Assembly (NCBI GenBank): GCA_964609215.1
Contig: CAZSQZ010000009.1
Span: 16,394 to 80,393, forward strand
Origin: an uncultured Flavobacteriales bacterium
Lineage (GTDB): Bacteria; Bacteroidota; Bacteroidia; Flavobacteriales_D; JABDKJ01
Direction: 5' to 3'
DNA: 64,000 bases
Position 1 is the first letter of the stretch. Every line of letters starts with the position of its first letter. The notes beneath the pieces are model-generated. The model had not been told where the DNA came from, searched no databases, and was given only the letters and a program-made list of their open reading frames with translations. Of the stretch, positions 31,451 to 41,140 are shown piece after piece. The translations under genes were made by a program, and so were the position numbers.

Positions 31451-32551
31451 CTACGGAGGTGAACCAAGAATGTCTTTAAGTTGGCCAATCATACTGCCTT
31501 TGCCATCAACAGTAATTTCACCGATCTTGTCAGCCACTTTTTCCACGAACTCCATTTCCTTCAATTTATAGAGCATTTGGTTGTTCTCCATTAATTTTGC
31601 TGTGTTCAACATACTTCTAGTAGAAGCTGTTTCTTCTCTTCTCATGATCATGCTGGCAGCGGCTTTTTTCTCTGCTACTAAAACTTGATTCATGATTTCT
31701 TTAATGTCGCCCGGAAGAATGATATCTTTAATACCGCAAGAAATCAATTCTACTCCAAGTGCTTTGCATTCTTTATGACTTCCGCTTTTTACAAATGAGC
31801 CTGCTTGGGTTTTTAGCTCTAAGAGTTCATCAAAGCTCAAACCACCTACATAAGCTCTTAAAGACATTTGCAAAATGGTATAGAGCTGCTTTCTGAAGTC
31901 TATGTTTTTAAGCAAAGCAAGAACTGGGTCAACGACTTTAAACGCAAATTCGAAGTTGATTCTTAAGTTGGCTTTATCTTTAGTCAAGATTTCTTGGCCG
32001 CTTAACTCCATTGATTGTTGTCTCAAATCAATAATATCAACTTGAACATTAGACAATTGCTTGTAAAAGTGATAAACACCTGGAGTCAGGGCTTCAAATA
32101 ATTTACCATCCTCTTGAACTAAACCCATTTCGAAATTTCTGATTTCAATCTTTTTCAAAATGTTGTTGTTCACCAGAGCATCTAATACTTTTTTAGAAAG
32201 GTTATCCTGAACTCTTACCTCTTTCATATTTAGTGTCTGAAATGTATAAAGAGAGTTTTCTTTCCAGTAAGCATAGATACCTTCGGTAAGAATTGATTGA
32301 AGAATGTTATTTCTATAAACCAATATAACTTGTTCGTCTGTGATTTCAAGTACGTCTAGTTGCTTGTATAGTTCTTCATTTTTCAATAACAAAGCCAGAT
32401 CAATTGGTGCATCAAAGCGCATCAAGGTATTGTAAATCTTTATTGTCTTATTGCTAAAGTTCCAGTGCTTACCGCTACTTAATACTTTGATCAAATCTTG
32501 ACCTTCAAATACGAGGCCTTTTTCGTACGTTTTAATTTTTACTCTAAACAT
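31451..32551 (-). CDS. SPFH/band-7 (slipin-like) domain protein
   Basis: SPFH core (ILTKDKANLRINFEFAFKVVDP...), followed by a coiled-coil-like AEKKAAASMIMRREETAS region typical of HflK/C-stomatin relatives. Confidence 0.6.
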   Translation of the reverse strand: MFRVKIKTYEKGLVFEGQDLIKVLSSGKHWNFSNKTIKIYNTLMRFDAPIDLALLLKNEELYKQLDVLEITDEQVILVYRNNILQSILTEGIYAYWKENSLYTFQTLNMKEVRVQDNLSKKVLDALVNNNILKKIEIRNFEMGLVQEDGKLFEALTPGVYHFYKQLSNVQVDIIDLRQQSMELSGQEILTKDKANLRINFEFAFKVVDPVLALLKNIDFRKQLYTILQMSLRAYVGGLSFDELLELKTQAGSFVKSGSHKECKALGVELISCGIKDIILPGDIKEIMNQVLVAEKKAAASMIMRREETASTRSMLNTAKLMENNQMLYKLKEMEFVEKVADKIGEITVDGKGSMIGQLKDILGSPP

Positions 32552-32858
32552 GACATATCTATTTTAATTATTCATTCAATTTTTATAAAAAAAACCAACC
32601 TTTCAGATCCATCTGAATTTAGCGGAGCAAACTCAAGCATGGTATAGTTTTATGATTTACATAATATGAGTTTTAGGCTGAGAAAAGAGTGTGAATTTTA
32701 CTGGCAGCGAAATCGCGTTGAGTAAAATTCTAGTTCAATTCTGTACCTAATGCCCAGGCTTTATTCAGATTTTTCATTCCATTGTCAAGGACAATTGATG
32801 AAAAGGACCTGAAGGTTGATTTTTTGAAAATGGGAGGTATTAACTGAGCTACCTAACC

Positions 32859-32935
32859 TCAATAGGGGTGGAATCGAACCACCGACCTTCTCGTTTATGC
32901 GAGATGCTCTAACCACTTGTGTTACTATATAAAAG
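32859..32935 (-). pseudogene. tRNA-like element (5'-disrupted), with a 6-nt anticodon-like loop
   Basis: Minus-strand reading gives a canonical D-loop/3' D-stem (AGTGGTTAGAGCA), variable AGGTC and T-arm GGTGG-TTCGATT-CCACC. The 5' D-stem and acceptor partner are absent. The anticodon-position hairpin TCTCG/CATAAA/CGAGA has a 6-nt loop. Confidence 0.4.
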
Positions 32936-32959
32936 TATAGCGCGTTTTCCAATTACGCC

Positions 32960-33050
32960 ACTGTGCCACAAGCACAGACAGGACTCGAACCTGTATAACA
33001 TGGGATTTATTTTCAGCAAATCCAAGTACTGAATTCATCATCAATATAAT
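32960..33050 (-). pseudogene. tRNA-like fragment (T-arm plus extended hairpins)
   Basis: Minus-strand ACAGG-TTCGAGT-CCTGT T-arm followed by a CTGTGC/GCACAG hairpin. An upstream GGATTT...AAATCC stem has a 9-nt loop. No acceptor pairing. Confidence 0.3.
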
Positions 33051-33577: not shown

Positions 33578-34270
33578 TTAACGGGCAAAATCCGTATACT
33601 TTATTTTGGTTATTACCCTTTCCCCTTTTCTATTGAATAATTCCGTTGTAGGCCTCATAATTAAGCCTTCAGCTATATAATCCGTATTCTCTGCAATGGT
33701 GGATTTGAAACCTTCTTTGACGAAAGCAATAGCTTCTTCAAGTTTCCAAATTCCCATGATGGGTACAATCCCAATATTTAATTTATTGGCGATGTCTTCA
33801 TTGGCTTCTCTATTCAACCAGAAATCTCCAATTTTTACATCGAACAAAATGAAGTCGGTCCGATCAGGAAGATAGTTTCCACCTCTTTGAATTTTTTTGC
33901 CATAACCTTCTCCATATAAGCAAACATTTGTTGCATCTGGAAAATGTTTTTGCATTTTTTCATTAGTGAATGTATCCTGAAGAACGGAAACTAAATGCGC
34001 AGGAATTTGTGCATTATCCGTTTTTCCTCCGAAACGAACTTTTATTCCATCCCACATGATTCTGATATTTGTTCCGTCAATTTTTTCGGTACAAATCCAG
34101 TTGATGTTCTTCAATAATTCGAATTCCGGTTTTGCCCAAGTTCCTTCTAGTAAGGTCTTGTGTTTATTTTTAGGATCTCTAAAAAACACCGTTTGAATTT
34201 TTTGGTATTGTTTCATTTCACTCATATTTAAATTATCCATTCGTAGGAATAGAAAGATTCGAACTCTCAT
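33578..34270 (-). CDS. minimal ATP-dependent RNA/DNA ligase-like nucleotidyltransferase (KxDG adenylyltransferase domain only)
   Basis: Motif I TEKIDGTN (KxDG), motif III-like FILFDV, motif IV AEGLIMRP (EGhhhK/R) and motif V ITKIKYTDF. The first ~15 codons of the listed ORF overlap the tRNA-Arg gene, so the true start is probably an internal Met (MSEMKQ/MKQYQ near 34216-34225). The mature protein is about 215 aa, with no OB domain. Confidence 0.55.
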   Translation of the reverse strand: MRVRIFLFLRMDNLNMSEMKQYQKIQTVFFRDPKNKHKTLLEGTWAKPEFELLKNINWICTEKIDGTNIRIMWDGIKVRFGGKTDNAQIPAHLVSVLQDTFTNEKMQKHFPDATNVCLYGEGYGKKIQRGGNYLPDRTDFILFDVKIGDFWLNREANEDIANKLNIGIVPIMGIWKLEEAIAFVKEGFKSTIAENTDYIAEGLIMRPTTELFNRKGERVITKIKYTDFAR

Positions 34271-34315
34271 CCTCTGGTTCGTAGCCAGATATTTTCTCCC
34301 TTAAACTATATTCCT
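34244..34315 (-). tRNA. tRNA-Arg (anticodon ACG)
   Basis: Folded by eye. Perfect 7-bp acceptor AGGAATA/TATTCCT. Anticodon stem TCTGG/CCAGA with loop CTACGAA. T-arm GAGAG-TTCGAAT-CTTTC with one G-U. D-loop contains GG. Discriminator A. No encoded CCA. Confidence 0.6.
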
Positions 34316-34320
34316 ATTTG

Positions 34321-34393
34321 TGGAACAGAAAGGACTCGAACCTTTATCTTCCCGTCTTCAGCGGGTCGCATTGACCATCTTTGCTACTATTCC
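34321..34393 (-). tRNA. tRNA-Phe (anticodon GAA)
   Basis: 7-bp acceptor GGAATAG/CTGTTCC with one G-U. 3-bp D stem with a GG loop. Anticodon loop CTGAAGA. Variable AGATA. T-arm AAAGG-TTCGAGT-CCTTT. Confidence 0.6.
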
Positions 34394-34395
34394 AT

Positions 34396-34468
34396 TGGGT
34401 GTCTTCGAGGCTCGAACTCTGTTCTCTTCAGTCACAATGAAGTGTTTTACCGCATAAACTAAAGACAC
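34396..34468 (-). tRNA. tRNA-His (anticodon GTG)
   Basis: Anticodon stem CTTCA/TGAAG with loop TTGTGAC. The acceptor can be drawn with G-1 and C73 followed by CCA. D stem GTTT/AAAC with a GG loop. The T-stem is weak (about 3 bp around TTCGAGC). It is separated from the Phe gene by 2 nt. Confidence 0.5.
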
Positions 34469-34474
34469 CATAAG

Positions 34475-34548
34475 TACCCCTCCTAGGATTCGAACCTAGA
34501 CTGTAAGGATTTTAAGTCCTATGCCTCTGCCAATTGGGCCAGAGGGGC
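34475..34548 (-). tRNA. atypical tRNA with Leu anticodon TAA (type-I architecture, short variable loop)
   Basis: Acceptor GCCCCTC/GAGGGGT (G1-U72). Perfect T-arm CTAGG-TTCGAAT-CCTAG. Anticodon loop CTTAAAA on a 4-bp stem. 5-nt variable loop ACAGT. 3-bp D stem with D-loop AATTGGCA. Discriminator A. Confidence 0.5.
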
Positions 34549-34686
34549 AATTAAACTTGTGCTCTGTAGGGGAGAACCCCTATTTTCTGATAGAACTTAG
34601 CGAAGCGATCTCAACGAATCCATTGGAGATCATTCCCCTTGAGTCAAAGTCAGATGTACCAGCGGTTCTACTAGCAGAGCATTAGT
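34549..34686 (-). ncRNA. unassigned structured element between tRNA genes
   Basis: The minus-strand transcript would have a 7-bp terminal helix (TGCTCTG ... CAGAGCA) and internal hairpins GATCTC[13 nt]GAGATC and TAGGGG-TTCT-CCCCTA. It does not fold as a canonical tRNA by eye. Confidence 0.25.
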
Positions 34687-34759
34687 GCGGAGAGAGAGAC
34701 TCGAACTCTCAAATACCTGATTCTAAGTCAGGCGCCTTTGCCAATTTGGCCATCTCCGC
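34686..34759 (-). tRNA. atypical tRNA with Leu anticodon TAG (type-I architecture), paralog of the TAA gene
   Basis: Perfect 7-bp acceptor GCGGAGA/TCTCCGC. Anticodon stem CCTGA/TCAGG with loop CTTAGAA. Variable TATTT. T-arm GAGAG-TTCGAGT-CTCTC. 3-bp D stem with D-loop AAATTGGCAAA. Discriminator A. Confidence 0.55.
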
Positions 34760-34765
34760 ATTTGT

Positions 34766-34834
34766 TGCTCTATCAGGGTTCGAACCTGAAATCCAAGAAT
34801 CAAAATCTTGTGTGTTGCCATTACACTATAGAGC
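34766..34834 (-). tRNA. tRNA-Gln (anticodon TTG)
   Basis: Perfect acceptor GCTCTAT/ATAGAGC. D stem GTGT/ACAC with loop AATGGCA. Anticodon stem CAAGA/TCTTG with loop TTTTGAT. T-arm CAGG-TTCGAAC-CCTG. Discriminator A. Confidence 0.6.
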
Positions 34835-34879
34835 TATTTTGTTTGGGAAGTAGGATTATCTCACGTTTGAATTAATCCT

Positions 34880-34960
34880 AAATGATGTTCGTGAATGCAA
34901 AGCATTTCGAACCTACGACCTCCCGCGTCCAAGGCAGGTAAACAACCACCGTTATCTTCC
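34880..34960 (-). pseudogene. tRNA-like remnant carrying a T-loop motif (GGTTCGAAA), unresolved fold
   Basis: TTCGAA T-loop-like motif without a complementary T-stem. A possible acceptor-like pairing exists, GGGAGGT with ACTTCCC about 100 nt apart. The region also contains the hairpin ATCTTCCAAGAT followed by TTTTTTT. Confidence 0.25.
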
Positions 34961-35028
34961 AAGATTTTTTTGCTTAACATTCTCATGACTTCAGGAGACA
35001 GCTGAATTCAGTTGAACATTAAGCAAAG

Positions 35029-35111
35029 TGAAAGCGGCAGGACTCGAACCTGCATGCTCAGAAGAGACCTGATTTACAGTCAGGCGAGCCAACCAATTGC
35101 TCAACACTTCC
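35029..35111 (-). tRNA. tRNA-Tyr (anticodon GTA), type II
   Basis: Acceptor GGAAGTG/CGCTTTC with two G-U pairs. Canonical D-arm GAGC-AATTGGTTG-GCTC. Anticodon stem CCTGA/TCAGG with loop CTGTAAA. 13-14 nt variable arm with internal stem. T-arm GCAGG-TTCGAGT-CCTGC. Discriminator A. Confidence 0.65.
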
Positions 35112-35120
35112 ATATTTTAG

Positions 35121-35192
35121 AGACAAGGATGAGAGTCGAACTCATAAAAACAGTTTTGCAGACTGCTGCCTTAGCCATTCGGCCACCTTGTC
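35121..35192 (-). tRNA. tRNA-Cys (anticodon GCA)
   Basis: Perfect acceptor GACAAGG/CCTTGTC. D-arm GCC-GAATGGCTAA-GGC. Anticodon stem GCAGT/ACTGT (one G-U) with loop CTGCAAA. 4-nt variable. T-arm ATGAG-TTCGACT-CTCAT. Discriminator U, which is the Cys identity base. Confidence 0.65.
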
Positions 35193-35199
35193 AATTCGC

Positions 35200-35300
35200 G
35201 GAGAACAAAGGAATTGCTGCGCAGATCGCTGCGCTCAGAGTTCGAACCTTCACCGCGGATATGCGGCCTCACTTAGCAGTGAGTCTAACGAACCAGTATT
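35200..35300 (-). pseudogene. degenerate type-II tRNA-like element with Ser-type anticodon GCT in a 6-nt loop
   Basis: Minus-strand hairpin CTCAC/TGCTAA/GTGAG, which has only a 6-nt loop. Variable-arm-like stem CCGC/GCGG. A TTCGAAC T-loop motif lacks a proper T-stem. No acceptor pairing was found. Confidence 0.25.
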
Positions 35301-35309
35301 TACCTATTC

Positions 35310-35360
35310 TCCATTTGCGGAAAGAGTGGGAGTCGAACCCACACGAGTCGTTATCTCCGA
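35310..35360 (-). pseudogene. tRNA-like fragment (T-arm GTGGG-TTCGACT-CCCAC)
   Basis: Canonical T-arm on the minus strand followed by TCTTTCC. Only a minihelix-scale pairing partner (GGAGATA) lies upstream. Confidence 0.25.
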
Positions 35361-35375
35361 ACGGTTTTAACTCCA

Positions 35376-35408
35376 TATAGCGAACTCAATTGGTGTCGTT
35401 GAGTTCGC
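35376..35408. other. perfect 11-bp inverted repeat (AGCGAACTCAA ... TTGAGTTCGCT)
   Basis: Seen directly: AGCGAACTCAATTGGTGTCGTTGAGTTCGCT. It lies between the tRNA-like remnants and the terminator hairpin at 35470. Confidence 0.5.
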
Positions 35409-35467
35409 TTTGCTCAGTTCAAGGTCGTGACCACCACCAATTGGCTTGTCTTTCCAAAATCTTTTTC

Positions 35468-35500: not shown

Positions 35501-35924
35501 AAATGTCTTGATCTATTTATTTCAATCTATTTTAAATGCTTCTCCCTATAGAATTTTTTGAATTCCGGATAGAATAATCGCAGCGAACTACATCCTTGTT
35601 CTTGGACTAAGTGGGCTTGGATTATATGTTCTAATGCAATTTTCATTGTGCTTTGTTTTGTGCGCTGCAAATATTTAAACTCTTTTTCAATTATACAAGA
35701 AAAAATTAATTTAAGTTACTGATAATCAAATGTTTACGATAAATTTTTGGACATAGAAATCCCGACTCGTATTTCTCGAATTTTCTTTTTTTTCGCAATT
35801 GCCTGTCTCTCAATTGATTCATTTTTTCTATTCTATTTCAACCTTATTTTAATTTATTCATTAATTATTTTTTTCAGTGTTTTTCAATTTCATTTATTCA
35901 AGCTCTTGTTATAGAGTTTGGGAC

Positions 35925-36136: not shown

Positions 36137-37207
36137 TTATTTTGGTTGTCTAACCCGAGCATAAAATTCAGTTCTTAAGTTTCTGAGAAGCAAGTCTATT
36201 TGGTTTTTATCAGGTGAATCTTTTAAATTGGAGAACTTAAATAATAAATCAAGTTCCTGCCTTAATTTTTCTGCTTCTTTTAGAAGATATTCATACTCGA
36301 ATTCCCCATTTTTAATTGAAAGTAAAAAATCTCGATCTTTTCTTTTTACATTAATTCTTCCTTCTAGTGCTATTTCTTTGGCCATCTTGAGAAGCCTGAA
36401 TGTATGCATAATGTTTTTCGAGTCATAGTTTTTTCCATGTTTCACAGTTGTATTGTATCTCTCTTCATTTCTATTTTCCACCCAAGCCCAATATTCTTTA
36501 TGTCTCTTACAATAGGTGGAATAGCCATCTAGATTGAAAAAGAGCATGGTAAGGGCCTTTTCTCCTTTGGGTATTGAACTTAATGCAATTTCATTGGCAT
36601 TAGAGCTATTTATAATTCCTTTGTGTTGAATTGATTTGCTGTGAAAAAGACTATAACAGTCTTTCATGTTGGCTAATTTAACAAGACCACAATCTTCTTG
36701 TCGAATATTATTGTCTTTTAAGTATCGGCTAAGAGGAACTGATTTATTATGATCTAAAACAAAGCAAAAATCAAGAACTCCTTTTTTGACTTTTGACATT
36801 GGATTAACAATTTTCTTCTCAAGTCCTCTAGCTTTTTTAATCTGAGTAAATACATAGTTAGAAAATGTTTCCTTGCAACGCTTGCTCAAGAATAGATCTG
36901 TTTTCACCTTACCAAAAATGGGGTCTTTGTGCAATATGCAACCCTCCGGAACAGACAGGAGCTCAATTATATTGGGGTTATTATTAAGGCATAATTTCAG
37001 GAACTTTCTGATTTCATAATAAACAATGTCATTGCTTGGATTATTAATTTGTTCTGTATAATCGAAAGAATACAATTGCTTTTCTGGAAGAATATATACC
37101 CCTCTAATATCCGTGTCCGAATTTGGAGTAGCTAAACCATAAGCTCTACTTCCACTGATGCACTCAAAAATGATGTGACCTGATTCTTTTAATTCCTCAA
37201 GAGTCAT
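36137..37207 (-). CDS. Pol-beta superfamily nucleotidyltransferase (predicted RNA/nucleotide-modifying NTase)
   Basis: N-terminal hG[GS]x9-13Dh[DE] motif ISGSRAYGLATPNSDTDIRGV. 356 aa. Stop overlaps the start of the upstream paralog, so the two are operonic. Confidence 0.55.
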   Translation of the reverse strand: MTLEELKESGHIIFECISGSRAYGLATPNSDTDIRGVYILPEKQLYSFDYTEQINNPSNDIVYYEIRKFLKLCLNNNPNIIELLSVPEGCILHKDPIFGKVKTDLFLSKRCKETFSNYVFTQIKKARGLEKKIVNPMSKVKKGVLDFCFVLDHNKSVPLSRYLKDNNIRQEDCGLVKLANMKDCYSLFHSKSIQHKGIINSSNANEIALSSIPKGEKALTMLFFNLDGYSTYCKRHKEYWAWVENRNEERYNTTVKHGKNYDSKNIMHTFRLLKMAKEIALEGRINVKRKDRDFLLSIKNGEFEYEYLLKEAEKLRQELDLLFKFSNLKDSPDKNQIDLLLRNLRTEFYARVRQPK

Positions 37208-37950
37208 GTCAGTTCATTTATAAAAAACTCATTGAATGCAGTTGGATTCAATCTTACTTTTTTCAATGAATCCTTTTTCGATTCGTTTTCAAGTACAATT
37301 GTTTTAGCCATATTTAGCAAGTCTGTATTTATAGCAACAATTCCAGCTTCAGCAGTCGAAGCCTTTAACTGAACTAAATCGAGTAAAAGTCTTGATTCAT
37401 GATCTGAAATCAATTCAAAAAGCTCGGTAAATGAAACTGGAGGGATGGTCTTATTTTTTAAAATCCAATTGGCACATAATGCAGTTCTTATGGCGTAGAA
37501 GAATTCTTTAATAGTAAATTTTCCTTCTTTCAATTTCTCATGAAATCCTTTGTTCATACTGTGAAAATGATAGAATCCAGAAACAGGATTGAAATTTTCT
37601 TTTGCAAGAGTTCGCATATTTTCGAGTGTTTCCCTGTGAGAAAAATAGACGATTGGAGAAAATAGCCAACCTAGAAACGAAGCATTGGACTTGGCCAAAA
37701 GTTTGGAGGCTTTTTGCAAATCCCATCCAACTCCATCCAAGTCTTCTTCCGTCATAAATTGAATTGTATCATCTTCTTCCCATAGACTTAAGTATTTACG
37801 AAAGTCCTTTTTGTAAACGAAACGAACGTCATAATCTGAATCGGGAGACTCAAAACCCCAGGCCCTACTTCCAGATTCAACAGCAAAAAGAATATCTACT
37901 TCCTTCGTTTTTTCTATTTCTTTGAGTTTATTTATTATTAAGTCTTTCAT
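37204..37950 (-). CDS. Pol-beta superfamily nucleotidyltransferase, paralog of the downstream gene
   Basis: ESGSRAWGFESPDSDYDVRFVY motif (GS...DxD). 248 aa. 4-nt overlap with the next gene. Confidence 0.55.
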   Translation of the reverse strand: MKDLIINKLKEIEKTKEVDILFAVESGSRAWGFESPDSDYDVRFVYKKDFRKYLSLWEEDDTIQFMTEEDLDGVGWDLQKASKLLAKSNASFLGWLFSPIVYFSHRETLENMRTLAKENFNPVSGFYHFHSMNKGFHEKLKEGKFTIKEFFYAIRTALCANWILKNKTIPPVSFTELFELISDHESRLLLDLVQLKASTAEAGIVAINTDLLNMAKTIVLENESKKDSLKKVRLNPTAFNEFFINELT

Positions 37951-37961
37951 TTTTTTTCAAT

Positions 37962-40047
<2,086 letters not shown>

Positions 40048-40090: not shown

Positions 40091-41140
40091 TTGAAAGCTT
40101 TAATTTTGTATATGGCTCAAAATAAAAACGCTCTGATAAGATATAAAACCATTGATAAATGTCTTCAAAATCAATATAGAAAATGGACTTTGGAGGATTT
40201 AATTGATGCTTGTTCAGATGCATTGAACGAATATGAAGGACGAGATATAAATGTAAGCAAACGAACTGTTCAGCTTGATATTCAGTTAATGAGGAGTGAT
40301 AAACTTGGATATAATGCACCCATTATTGCTTATGAACGCAAATATTATCGTTATGAAGATGAGAATTATTCAATCACGAATATTCCTCTTACAGAAAATG
40401 ATATGAGTGTATTGACAGAGACGGTTGAAATGTTGAAACAGTTCAAAGATTTTTCATTGTTTTCTGAGTTGGGTGGTATTATTCATCGTCTAGAGGACAA
40501 AATTCACACGGAGAAAACTCAAAACTCTTCAGTCATTCATTTAGAAAAGAATGAGAATCTAAAAGGCTTGGAGCATTTAGATTTGCTTTATCAAGCGATT
40601 CTAAAAAAGATTTGTTTGACATTGGATTATCAATCCTTCAAGGCTAAGTCATCGAGTAGAATCGTTTTTCATCCATTTATTTTGAAAGAGTTTAACAATC
40701 GCTGGTTCGTGGTTGGAAGAAAAGGGAAGAGTAGTCCCATCATTACTTTTGCCTTAGATAGAATAATAGCTATTGACTATAATTTAGACATTCCATATTT
40801 AAACGAAGACTTTGATAGAGATGAGTATTACAAAAACACAATTGGTGTAACCGTACTTAACGAAACGCAGCTGAGAGAAGTTGATTTGAAAATTGACAAA
40901 TACAATGCACCTTATGTTTTGACCAAGCCCTTTCACCAATCGCAAGAGGTAATAGAAACAGATAGATATGGAAACGTAACGGTCAGAATCAAAGTTCATT
41001 TGAATTTCGAATTGGAACGTCTCATACTAGGTTTTGGAGATTCAATTCAAGTTCTTAAACCTAGACAATTGAAGAATAGAATAAGAAGGAAATTAAAAAA
41101 TGCGATTGAGAATTATGAGAAGGCTAAGGAACCTCATTAA
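40091..41140 (+). CDS. HTH plus WYL-domain transcriptional regulator, divergent from rtcB
   Basis: N-terminal winged-HTH-like segment (NALIRYKTIDKCL) and central WYL-like segment (NRWFVVGRKGKSSPIITFALDRI). 349 aa. The likely start is MAQNKN near 40112. Confidence 0.55.
   Translation: MKALILYMAQNKNALIRYKTIDKCLQNQYRKWTLEDLIDACSDALNEYEGRDINVSKRTVQLDIQLMRSDKLGYNAPIIAYERKYYRYEDENYSITNIPLTENDMSVLTETVEMLKQFKDFSLFSELGGIIHRLEDKIHTEKTQNSSVIHLEKNENLKGLEHLDLLYQAILKKICLTLDYQSFKAKSSSRIVFHPFILKEFNNRWFVVGRKGKSSPIITFALDRIIAIDYNLDIPYLNEDFDRDEYYKNTIGVTVLNETQLREVDLKIDKYNAPYVLTKPFHQSQEVIETDRYGNVTVRIKVHLNFELERLILGFGDSIQVLKPRQLKNRIRRKLKNAIENYEKAKEPH

Follow-up and report, generated by a model that had tools for sequence, protein, structure and literature searches.

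Can a bacterial tRNA gene that carries a leucine anticodon and lacks the long variable arm encode a leucine tRNA, and what would two such genes be kept for? The question is raised by a stretch of DNA of 64,000 nucleotides (the window in the following) from contig CAZSQZ010000009.1 of an uncultured Flavobacteriales bacterium. On its minus strand lie two short tRNA-Leu genes, tRNA-Leu(UAA) at 34475-34548 and tRNA-Leu(UAG) at 34686-34759, both of type-I architecture, i.e. having a short variable loop, and both within a tRNA array that is part of an island of RNA-repair genes. The answer favoured here, with somewhat more confidence than doubt, is that both genes encode functional, leucine-accepting type-I tRNA-Leu, which would serve as spare tRNAs deployed together with tRNA repair.

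Both genes were called by ARAGORN (limits 34474-34548 for Leu(taa) and 34685-34759 for Leu(tag), anticodon at position 35 of ARAGORN numbering) and matched the whole Rfam model RF00005, with 55.1 bits (E 3.9e-9) for Leu(UAA) and 69.6 bits (E 3.9e-13) for Leu(UAG). Read out from the Rfam alignments, Leu(UAA) is GCCCCUC UG GCC CAAUUGGCAGA GGC A UAGGA CUUAAAA UCCUU ACAGU CUAGG UUCGAAU CCUAG GAGGGGU A, and Leu(UAG) is GCGGAGA UG GCC AAAUUGGCAAA GGC G CCUGA CUUAGAA UCAGG UAUUU GAGAG UUCGAGU CUCUC UCUCCGC A. Each gene is 74 nt long, with CCA encoded in neither. The D arm of both consists of a 3-bp GCC/GGC stem and an 11-nt loop with AAUUGGCA, the anticodon loops are CUUAAAA in Leu(UAA) and CUUAGAA in Leu(UAG), the latter with A37, the T arms are perfect and the discriminator is A73. 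The variable loop has 5 nt in both (ACAGU and UAUUU, respectively). As just these 5 nt separate the anticodon stem from the T stem, no long arm is possible, and the class-II arm is missing from both genes. Leu(UAA) has G1·U72 as its first acceptor pair and a single mismatch, U27·U43, its other stems being fully paired. Minimum free energy (MFE) folding gave the acceptor, anticodon and T arms, and the fold of Leu(UAG) reached z = -3.4.

These results bear out what an initial annotation, made from the letters of the window, had described: two 74-nt Leu-anticodon tRNAs of type-I architecture, with the 3-bp D stem, the 5-nt variable loop, perfect T arms, A73 and both anticodon loops as given above. 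Its manual fold and anticodon register stand, since ARAGORN and Rfam found the same anticodons and no long arm. The two genes had also been called paralogous. They are not close paralogs, since identity is 54% overall and 26% in the stems, and recent paralogy was rejected for the former value. The minus strand and the context of tRNA array and RtcB-RlaP island were both missing from that annotation. The 137-nt spacer between the two genes (34549-34685, minus strand) was without homolog in related loci and holds a GGGG-UUCU-CCCC hairpin.

Whether these tRNAs are leucine tRNAs was read from their identity elements. In conventional numbering, both carry U8, A14, A15, U16U17, G18G19, N20, A20a, R21, A22, U48 and A73. 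Position 13:22 is unpaired in both, leaving the 3-bp D stem typical of class-II tRNA-Leu; the D loops follow C/A-AAUUGGCA-G/A-A, U48 ends the variable loop and is able to pair with A15, and the T loops UUCGAAU and UUCGAGU contain the canonical UUCGA, with U54, U55, C56 and A58 present. For the leucyl-tRNA synthetase (LeuRS) of E. coli, the identity set comprises A73 and the tertiary core of D loop, T loop and U48 (PMC9976931, PMC6614811), and for the LeuRS of E. coli and A. aeolicus the long arm is a structural hallmark and no identity determinant (PMC9976931). The elements seen in both genes equal the E. coli set of these two papers, and manual reading against the identity sets in PMC9976931 revealed no identity element for another synthetase. 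A blastn search against 50,697 phage records gave matches in 134 and 120 of them for the two sequences, respectively, and wherever one of the matches listed covered an annotated feature, this was a tRNA-Leu. Judged by these positions, tRNA body and anticodon are both leucine-type.

An identity switch had been considered in the initial annotation, i.e. a Leu anticodon on a body charged with a different amino acid, by which UUA and CUA would be recoded. Its one argument is the missing long arm. The leucine-type body with its class-II-style 3-bp D stem, AAUUGGNANA D loop, U48 and A73 speaks against it, as do the tRNA-Leu features under the phage matches listed and the closest relatives, which are chromosomal actinobacterial tRNA-Leu(UAA). 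Because the full bacterial leucine identity core is retained apart from the arm, identity switch and recoding are very improbable, and this part of the annotation found essentially no support. Charging of arm-less tRNA-Leu has been described for the LeuRS of S. coelicolor (ScoLeuRS), which leucylates a natural type-I tRNA-Leu(CAA) with a kcat/Km of about half that of a type-II species and for which 5 nt is the shortest workable variable loop (PMC6614811). The host LeuRS would presumably charge both tRNAs of the window.

A review from 2023 describes tRNA-Leu as long-armed everywhere but in animal mitochondria (PMC9976931). The spread of the short form was assessed with a strict pattern for type I, which prescribes the D loop, the anticodon loop, U48 and the T loop together with their spacing and leaves A73 free, and, as a less biased sample, with a neutral pattern, i.e. 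a motif common to both architectures, which was evaluated on the first 80 IMG/VR contigs. The strict pattern was found in at least 120 viral contigs of IMG/VR and in at least 120 loci of bacterial contigs (one genome per species). Among the matches listed, the viral loci contained 173 short and 40 long tRNA-Leu according to ARAGORN, and Leu(CAA), which cannot be selected by the strict pattern, was short in 27 of 30 cases; short tRNA-Ser and tRNA-Tyr amounted to 0/102 and 1/49, respectively. The bacterial loci, likewise among the matches listed, held 145 short and 5 long tRNA-Leu, with short tRNA-Ser at 0/22 and short tRNA-Tyr at 0/12. By the neutral pattern, 20 of 75 Leu(UAA/UAG) genes were short (UAG 14/28, UAA 6/47).

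Single tRNA genes made up 93 of the 120 bacterial loci among the matches listed, and all but one of them were tRNA-Leu(UAA). These solitary genes were mostly found in Nocardia, Mycobacterium, Gordonia, Rhodococcus, Arthrobacter, Rothia and relatives, with near-identical sequence across genera, and were read as an ordinary chromosomal gene of those organisms; that just three of the five tRNA-Leu species of M. tuberculosis have a long variable loop agrees with this reading. About 20 of the bacterial matches listed were long arrays, the largest of them with 31 tRNAs in 8 kb, hosted by Acidobacteriota, cyanobacteria, Cellvibrionaceae, Saprospiraceae and others, in which short Leu of several anticodons and no short Ser or Tyr occurred. 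Gap-free phage alignments through the variable region were obtained with Bacillus phage P59, T5-like Serratia and Enterobacter phages, Felixounavirus, mycobacteriophages, Gordonia, Vibrio and Cellulophaga phages, and cyanophages. The scaffold, which the initial annotation had termed unusual, departs from the textbook rule, but it is not rare, given its presence in Actinomycetota, phages and transferred arrays and the leucylation of one such tRNA (PMC6614811).

Covariation was evaluated on 214 unique 74-nt type-I Leu sequences, viral and bacterial, among the matches listed. The 20 stem pairs were paired in 96-100%, 2-6 pair types occurred at 19 of the 20 stem positions, 13:22 was never Watson-Crick, and A73 was present in 214/214, though it lies outside the search pattern. 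Both window genes have a layout identical to that of this set. G1·U72 was seen in 56 of the 214 sequences and also in phages P59 and Kamaji; in relatives, several array tRNAs have A1-U72 or U1 at their beginning, which is reminiscent of phages.

It is specifically Leu that loses the arm, and Ser and Tyr almost always keep it in the same loci. In the window, too, the short form is confined to the Leu genes of the array, as the tRNA-Tyr there keeps its normal bacterial long arm (83-84 nt). Loss would be possible in Leu and not in Ser or bacterial Tyr because bacterial LeuRS recognises A73 and the tertiary core of D loop, T loop and U48 instead of the arm; most simply, bacterial LeuRS can do without the arm and SerRS and TyrRS cannot, so that compact mobile sets would lose the Leu arm only, which the Leu-only pattern of the viral and bacterial loci fits. 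No published description of arm-less phage tRNA-Leu was found in the literature searched, in which the work on S. coelicolor and that on M. tuberculosis toxins came nearest. Type-I tRNA-Leu is a known but under-reported class, of which the window genes are ordinary members. The rule of textbooks and reviews that tRNA-Leu is universally long-armed outside animal mitochondria is incorrect, its exceptions being Actinomycetota, about a quarter of phage Leu(UAA/UAG) in a small sample, and mobile arrays of many phyla. Type-I Leu should be expected by annotation pipelines and isotype models, and the Leu-only loss of the arm represents a natural experiment, whose outcome is in line with the identity rules of the synthetases.

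The type-I Leu of Actinomycetota resembles both window genes in its 5-nt variable loop, Leu-type body and A73; the D arm GCCCAAUUGGCAGAGGCA of the window Leu(UAA) is the same as in actinobacterial Leu(UAA), and its ACAGU loop is common to several of those. The actinobacterial genes are single genes in high-GC Gram-positives, whereas those of the window belong to a multi-tRNA array with RNA-repair neighbours, on a flavobacterial contig of 35% GC, and S. coelicolor type-I tRNA-Leu has C48 in place of the U48 seen here. Phage short Leu genes share 73-88% nucleotide identity with the window genes, gap-free through the variable region, and in the UAA lineage also G1·U72 and A73. In phage P59, Leu(UAA) and Leu(UAG) stand side by side as in the window (77 nt each, including CCA), and in the T5-like Serratia phage Kamaji a short Leu gene is accompanied by a long one. 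Unlike in the window genes, CCA is mostly encoded in phage Leu genes. Animal mitochondrial tRNA-Leu likewise combines a short variable loop with A73, but its D and T loops are degenerate and it is served by a dedicated LeuRS, in contrast to the canonical G18G19 / T54-Ψ55-C56 elbows of the window genes. A mitochondrial or organellar origin was rejected because of the class-II Tyr, the G-1 of His, the canonical elbows and the bacterial neighbours. The window is a fragment of a bacterial chromosome with about 35% GC and corresponds to contig LBH21_10000012 of JGI metagenome 3300002927; its flanking genes encode, for example, UvrA, a SusC-like receptor and D-Ala-D-Ala ligase; a phage origin was rejected, as these flanking genes are chromosomal and a 20-kb megablast against the phage collection gave no match.

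Where did the two genes come from? Leu(UAA) is 82% identical to the solitary actinobacterial tRNA-Leu(UAA) and to a tRNA-Leu of Bacillus phage P59, and for Leu(UAG) the identity amounts to 80-81% with array genes in L313, L220 and L347 (L numbers denote loci) and to 78% with viral contigs. By similarity, the Leu(UAA) lineage is common to actinobacterial chromosomal Leu(UAA) and phages, and the Leu(UAG) lineage is one that occurs in mobile tRNA arrays. Orthologs of Leu(UAG) with about 80% identity were found in islands of Fluviicola (L220), Crocinitomicaceae (L347) and Winogradskyella (L222). Among the orthologs, the acceptor stem changes from G1-C72 to A1-U72 and from G3-C70 to A3-U70, the D stem occurs as GCC/GGC, GCG/CGC and AUG/CAU, the anticodon stem as CCUGA/UCAGG or CUUGG/CCAAG, and the T stem as GAGAG/CUCUC or GUGGG/CCCAC, with A73 and the 5-nt loop ending in U48 kept in all three. 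Compensatory changes in all four stems indicate that Leu(UAG) is under selection for its fold. At 17896-18025 of L220 (Fluviicola CP170456), a Leu(UAA) ortholog was located that has G1·U72, A73 and the same anticodon and T arms as the window gene; about 58 nt are inserted in its D loop after CAAUUG, and it is hence not called by ARAGORN.

Cellular CUN-reading tRNA-Leu normally carries G37, which TrmD modifies to m1G37. Among Leu(UAG) of phage and array loci that were found independently of the search pattern, A37 occurred in 14/14 short and 6/10 long genes, and the L347 ortholog has G37. In the initial annotation, escape from an anticodon-loop-specific nuclease and a decoy role had been among the explanations offered. 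Together with the arm-less scaffold, A37 could hide spare tRNAs from effectors that read the arm or the anticodon loop, and evasion of toxins would in that case extend the spare-tRNA reading. MenT3 requires the long variable arm's length and orientation, AbiEii is probably an arm-reading effector as well, SLFN11 targets type-II tRNAs, and type-I Leu is frequent in phages and mobile arrays, the pools exposed to such conflicts; the A37 of all 14 short Leu(UAG) points the same way. On the other hand, no such toxin is known or was identified in this genome, the anticodon loop of Leu(UAA) is canonical, the L347 ortholog has G37, and A37 also occurs in long Leu(UAG). As Ser and Tyr keep their arms, protection would extend to one of three class-II families only, and since Actinomycetota have solitary chromosomal Leu(UAA), the type-I form needs no conflict to persist. 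Toxin evasion is considered unlikely.

The two Leu genes are members of an array. ARAGORN called eight tRNA genes in the whole window, every one of them in this array and on the minus strand (34243-35192); the Rfam tRNA model matched all eight end to end and above the gathering score. In the order of transcription these are Cys(GCA) (35121-35192), Tyr(GUA) (35029-35111, long arm), Gln(UUG) (34765-34835), Leu(UAG), Leu(UAA), His(GUG) (34397-34469, with encoded G-1 and C73), Phe(GAA) (34321-34393) and Arg(ACG) (34244-34315), the first three forming the 5′ part of the intact array and the last three its 3′ part. Three further tRNA-like genes on the same strand were called by neither ARAGORN nor Rfam, and each has a unique hairpin-containing insertion. 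The Pro(UGG)-like gene (34842-34963), recognised by alignment to L220 and L222, has about 50 nt inserted into its T loop and mismatches at two positions of the acceptor stem; in the class-II Ser(GCU)-like gene (35198-35312), the T loop is interrupted by a 28-nt hairpin and the anticodon loop has 6 nt; in the class-II Ser(UGA)-like gene (35317-35455), it is the anticodon loop that is interrupted, by a 49-nt hairpin after position 37. Altogether, the array consists of 8 intact and 3 disrupted tRNA genes at 34244-35455, all on the minus strand, tightly spaced and non-periodic.

The two Ser-like genes align at 75.5% to an intact Ser-Ser-Cys-Tyr block of L220, the Pro-like sequence is uninterrupted in L220, and uninterrupted orthologs of the insertion-bearing genes were found in L220 and L222. 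A Pro insertion at the same position occurs in Winogradskyella, with a conserved 5′ motif there, and the T and anticodon stems flanking the Pro insertion show compensatory changes. In L220, a 17-nt duplicate of the Pro-like 3′ end starts 59 nt downstream. MFE folds of the four insertion-bearing tRNA genes contained no bulge-helix-bulge motif, for which reason archaeal-type introns were rejected; a repeated mobile element as the source was rejected as well, since no second copies of the inserted sequences were present in the window or in ten related loci. The insertions were treated as disruptions, though an RtcB ligase is encoded nearby; more speculatively, cleavage and subsequent RtcB ligation might excise the hairpin insertions of the Ser, Pro and Leu genes, which would be a bacterial protein-dependent tRNA splicing.

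Disrupted neighbours are what would be expected if the array were the remnant of a transferred or phage-derived cluster, with the Leu genes silent or becoming pseudogenes. Insertions and stem defects in 3 of the 11 tRNA-derived genes of the array, array sizes of 0-18 genes among related islands and the interrupted D loop of the L220 ortholog of Leu(UAA) are consistent with such decay. The two Leu genes, on the contrary, score 55-70 bits, have every conserved tertiary nucleotide and show U27·U43 in Leu(UAA) as their sole stem defect, and the changes in their orthologs are compensatory rather than disruptive. That both are decaying relics is rated as quite unlikely.

The genes around the array were analysed for their predicted function. 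On the minus strand, the order is RtcB, a protein without recognised domain, RlaP, RlaP, the tRNA array, an Rnl2-like ligase, about 1 kb of non-coding DNA and an SPFH/Band-7 protein. The RtcB-family 3′-phosphate RNA ligase (38641-40026; Pfam PF01139, E 1.6e-35) is the first gene of the putative operon; divergent from it on the plus strand lies a putative WYL/WCX-domain regulator (40091-41140; Pfam PF13280 and PF25583, PADLOC WYL). The following gene (37962-38696, JGI gene call of 239 aa) had no Pfam, NCBIfam or PADLOC match, and related islands have it in the same place, after RtcB and before RlaP. Two RlaP nucleotidyltransferases (Pfam PF10127) form a tandem pair, 36137-37207 with E 2.1e-25 and 37204-37950 with E 6.1e-61. 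RlaP, the ‘RNA-ligase-associated Pol-beta’ nucleotidyltransferase, adds 1-2 nt to damaged RNA 3′ ends and was needed in vitro to restore aminoacylation of over-damaged tRNA (preprint, PMC12776372). Directly downstream of the array, the Rnl2-like ATP-dependent RNA ligase (33578-34216, gene call in L218; Pfam PF09414, E 1.3e-17, NCBIfam Rnl2 weak) consists of the nucleotidyltransferase domain only. The last gene of the island is that of the SPFH/Band-7 protein (31451-32551; Pfam PF01145, E 3e-21). Scans of the island open reading frames with Pfam and NCBIfam revealed no RtcA, Rsr/Ro, kinase-phosphatase or Hen1. PADLOC matched the WYL regulator with generic WYL models and none of the other six island proteins, and a known anti-phage defence system was rejected on this account. 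Upstream of the array, after the RlaP genes, comes a non-coding block (35646-35871, minus strand) that is 70-74% conserved with L221, L222/L223 and L224, including an array-less island; it might represent a small RNA, a leader or else a small open reading frame.

A tRNA-like or YrlA-like non-coding stretch (32844-33013, minus strand) is situated in the spacer of about 1 kb upstream of the Band-7 gene. It gave sub-threshold Rfam matches (YrlA 28.6 bits, E 0.008; tRNA 24.5 bits), is 74% conserved with 19450-19601 of L221 and contains two T arms, GGUUCGAGUCC and GGUUCGAUUCC, and the D-arm-like AGUGGUUAGAGCA. Burroughs and Aravind reportedly predicted RlaP- and SPFH-containing repair systems in 2016 and are said to have predicted, in the abstract of that work, a tRNA-like partner of SPFH proteins; the stretch may be this SPFH-associated tRNA-like RNA. 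With such sequences in the island, the array tRNAs might act as decoys or sponges that soak up tRNA-targeting nucleases, or as ligands or substrates of repair and scaffold proteins (SPFH, WYL). The insertion-bearing genes, in which anticodon and T stems are kept, would suit this role, and a sponge role of array tRNAs has been proposed for Anabaena (PMC8421152). A decoy, however, would need no correct acceptor identity, and the array His has G-1 and C73, Tyr and Ser are class II, and A73 with the LeuRS core was kept in 214/214 type-I Leu among the matches listed. Conserved identity features of this kind indicate selection for aminoacylation, and a decoy role is judged to have little probability.

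Eleven related loci besides the window were found through RtcB homologs. RtcB had 6193 homologs, the closest in Flavobacteriales, and the window protein is 76-82% identical to those of Crocinitomicaceae, Schleiferiaceae, Fluviicola, Winogradskyella, Tenacibaculum and Polaribacter. The WYL gene adjoins RtcB in 10 of the 11 loci, L349 being the exception with a distance of about 2.3 kb, and a WYL–RtcB(–RlaP) core thus recurs in Flavobacteriales. One or two RlaP genes occur in 8 (none in L224, L226 and the short contig L348), and a Band_7 gene is at the distal island end in L220 and L221 as well. Arrays are present in 6 of the 11, with Leu(UAG) in five of them and always type I: 10 called tRNAs including a 75-nt Leu(UAG) in Fluviicola CP170456 (L220), 7 tRNAs including a 75-nt Leu(UAG) in a Crocinitomicaceae metagenome-assembled genome (MAG; L347), 18 tRNAs for 16 amino acids, including an 87-nt Leu(UAA) and a 75-nt Leu(UAG), in Winogradskyella (L222, L223), and 3 tRNAs in the MAG L221. 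A common origin of the arrays is supported by the shared sequences and gene order Cys-Tyr…Gln…Leu(UAG)…His-Phe. In other phyla, arrays with type-I Leu were found at most 8 kb from RlaP (L312), RtcB (L313) and Band-7 (L280).

A host-type tRNA-Leu(CAA) of 83 nt and type II is located at the island edge in Winogradskyella (L222, 8644-8726) and Aquimarina (L224, 8660-8742), by which the local housekeeping Leu is shown to be class II. These abutting genes, together with a tyrosine integrase beside the WYL gene of a Winogradskyella-like contig (L223, 361-1605), suggest integration of the island at a tRNA gene. The array of the window was probably acquired horizontally, and it is presumably supernumerary to the housekeeping set, given the related islands without array and the type-II Leu(CAA) beside L222 and L224. 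A second RtcB paralog is present in L221, L222, L223, L224 and L349, followed by an RF-1/PrfH-like release factor in L221-L224 and additionally by a TPR protein in L221-L223; RtcB with a PrfH-like release factor is a known pairing for ribosome rescue and repair. Instead of this second module, L347 has RNase_T and DUF6584, and the window island lacks all of these and has the Rnl2-like ligase.

Two groups of known systems resemble this arrangement. Long tRNA arrays spread by horizontal transfer (L-arrays) likewise consist of packed same-strand tRNA genes of patchy distribution; that of Anabaena PCC 7120, the trn operon, was horizontally acquired, is silent by default and is induced by translational stress with the kinetics of rtcB, and its authors proposed that RtcB repair and array tRNAs sustain tRNA levels (PMC8421152). 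The TrcR regulon comprises the array, rtcB and a slipin/SPFH gene (PMC10272220). In Anabaena, however, the array is on a plasmid, rtcB lies elsewhere and the link is via the RHH repressor TrcR only, whereas the short window array, with 8 intact genes, is placed inside the RtcB–RlaP–Rnl2–SPFH island with WYL as a neighbour. Bacterial RNA-repair operons (rtcBA/RtcR; Salmonella rsr-yrlA-rtcBA; the RlaP- and SPFH-containing systems reportedly predicted by Burroughs and Aravind) have in common with the window RtcB, RlaP, a second, ATP-dependent ligase, SPFH, a tRNA-like RNA, which is a candidate only in the window, and a ligand-sensing regulator adjoining the operon. They differ in the regulator, which is a CARF-containing RtcR there and WYL here, and in that the window locus holds complete canonical tRNA genes beyond a Y-RNA-like molecule. 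The island context is a variant of the known pairing of mobile tRNA array and RtcB.

That the two Leu genes are spare tRNAs deployed with a repair kit is supported by the composition of the island, which joins the three components of Anabaena, plus RlaP and a second ligase, beside a regulator of the ligand-binding type. Under this proposal, housekeeping tRNAs would be damaged by tRNA-targeting toxins or translational stress, and the WYL regulator would de-repress the island upon tRNA damage. Broken tRNAs would then be repaired through ligation by RtcB or Rnl2, with RlaP re-adding lost nucleotides, and replaced by fresh tRNAs from the array, including tRNA-Leu for UUR and CUN codons. Co-transcription of the island, its WYL-dependent induction and the benefit of joint replacement and repair under tRNA damage would all be part of this sequence of events.

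Several points weigh against it. The LeuRS of E. coli and one other Streptomyces LeuRS failed to charge the type-I tRNA-Leu of S. coelicolor (PMC6614811), because of which charging by a flavobacterial LeuRS is not to be assumed. It is only the common orientation of the genes that suggests their co-transcription; a consensus scan of the island yielded 32 promoter-like sites compared with 35 expected from shuffled sequence, and no convincing minus-strand terminator inside the array. With three neighbouring tRNA genes disrupted, the array may be decaying here. Finally, no array was found in Polaribacter, Aquimarina, Flavobacterium litorale, Tenacibaculum and a Schleiferiaceae contig, and as these make up 5 of the 11 related loci, the array tRNAs would be accessory cargo rather than core of the island.

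A further-reaching proposal, which is speculative and improbable to about the same degree as toxin evasion itself, is that the island acts as a ‘replace-and-repair’ immunity module, in which a WYL sensor would switch on repair together with spare tRNAs built as poor toxin substrates. If true, deletion of the Leu arm, often combined with A37, would allow escape from AbiEii/MenT-type nucleotidyltransferases or arm-dependent nucleases, and this would explain why type-I tRNA-Leu is frequent in phages and mobile arrays.

For Flavobacteriales, the reading of the two genes as spare tRNAs means that sets of such tRNAs would be wired into a WYL-controlled RtcB/RlaP/SPFH repair island. The idea that bacteria repair and replace damaged tRNAs at once has so far rested mainly on co-regulation in Anabaena, and the island would offer a compact and genetically tractable locus for asking whether they do so.

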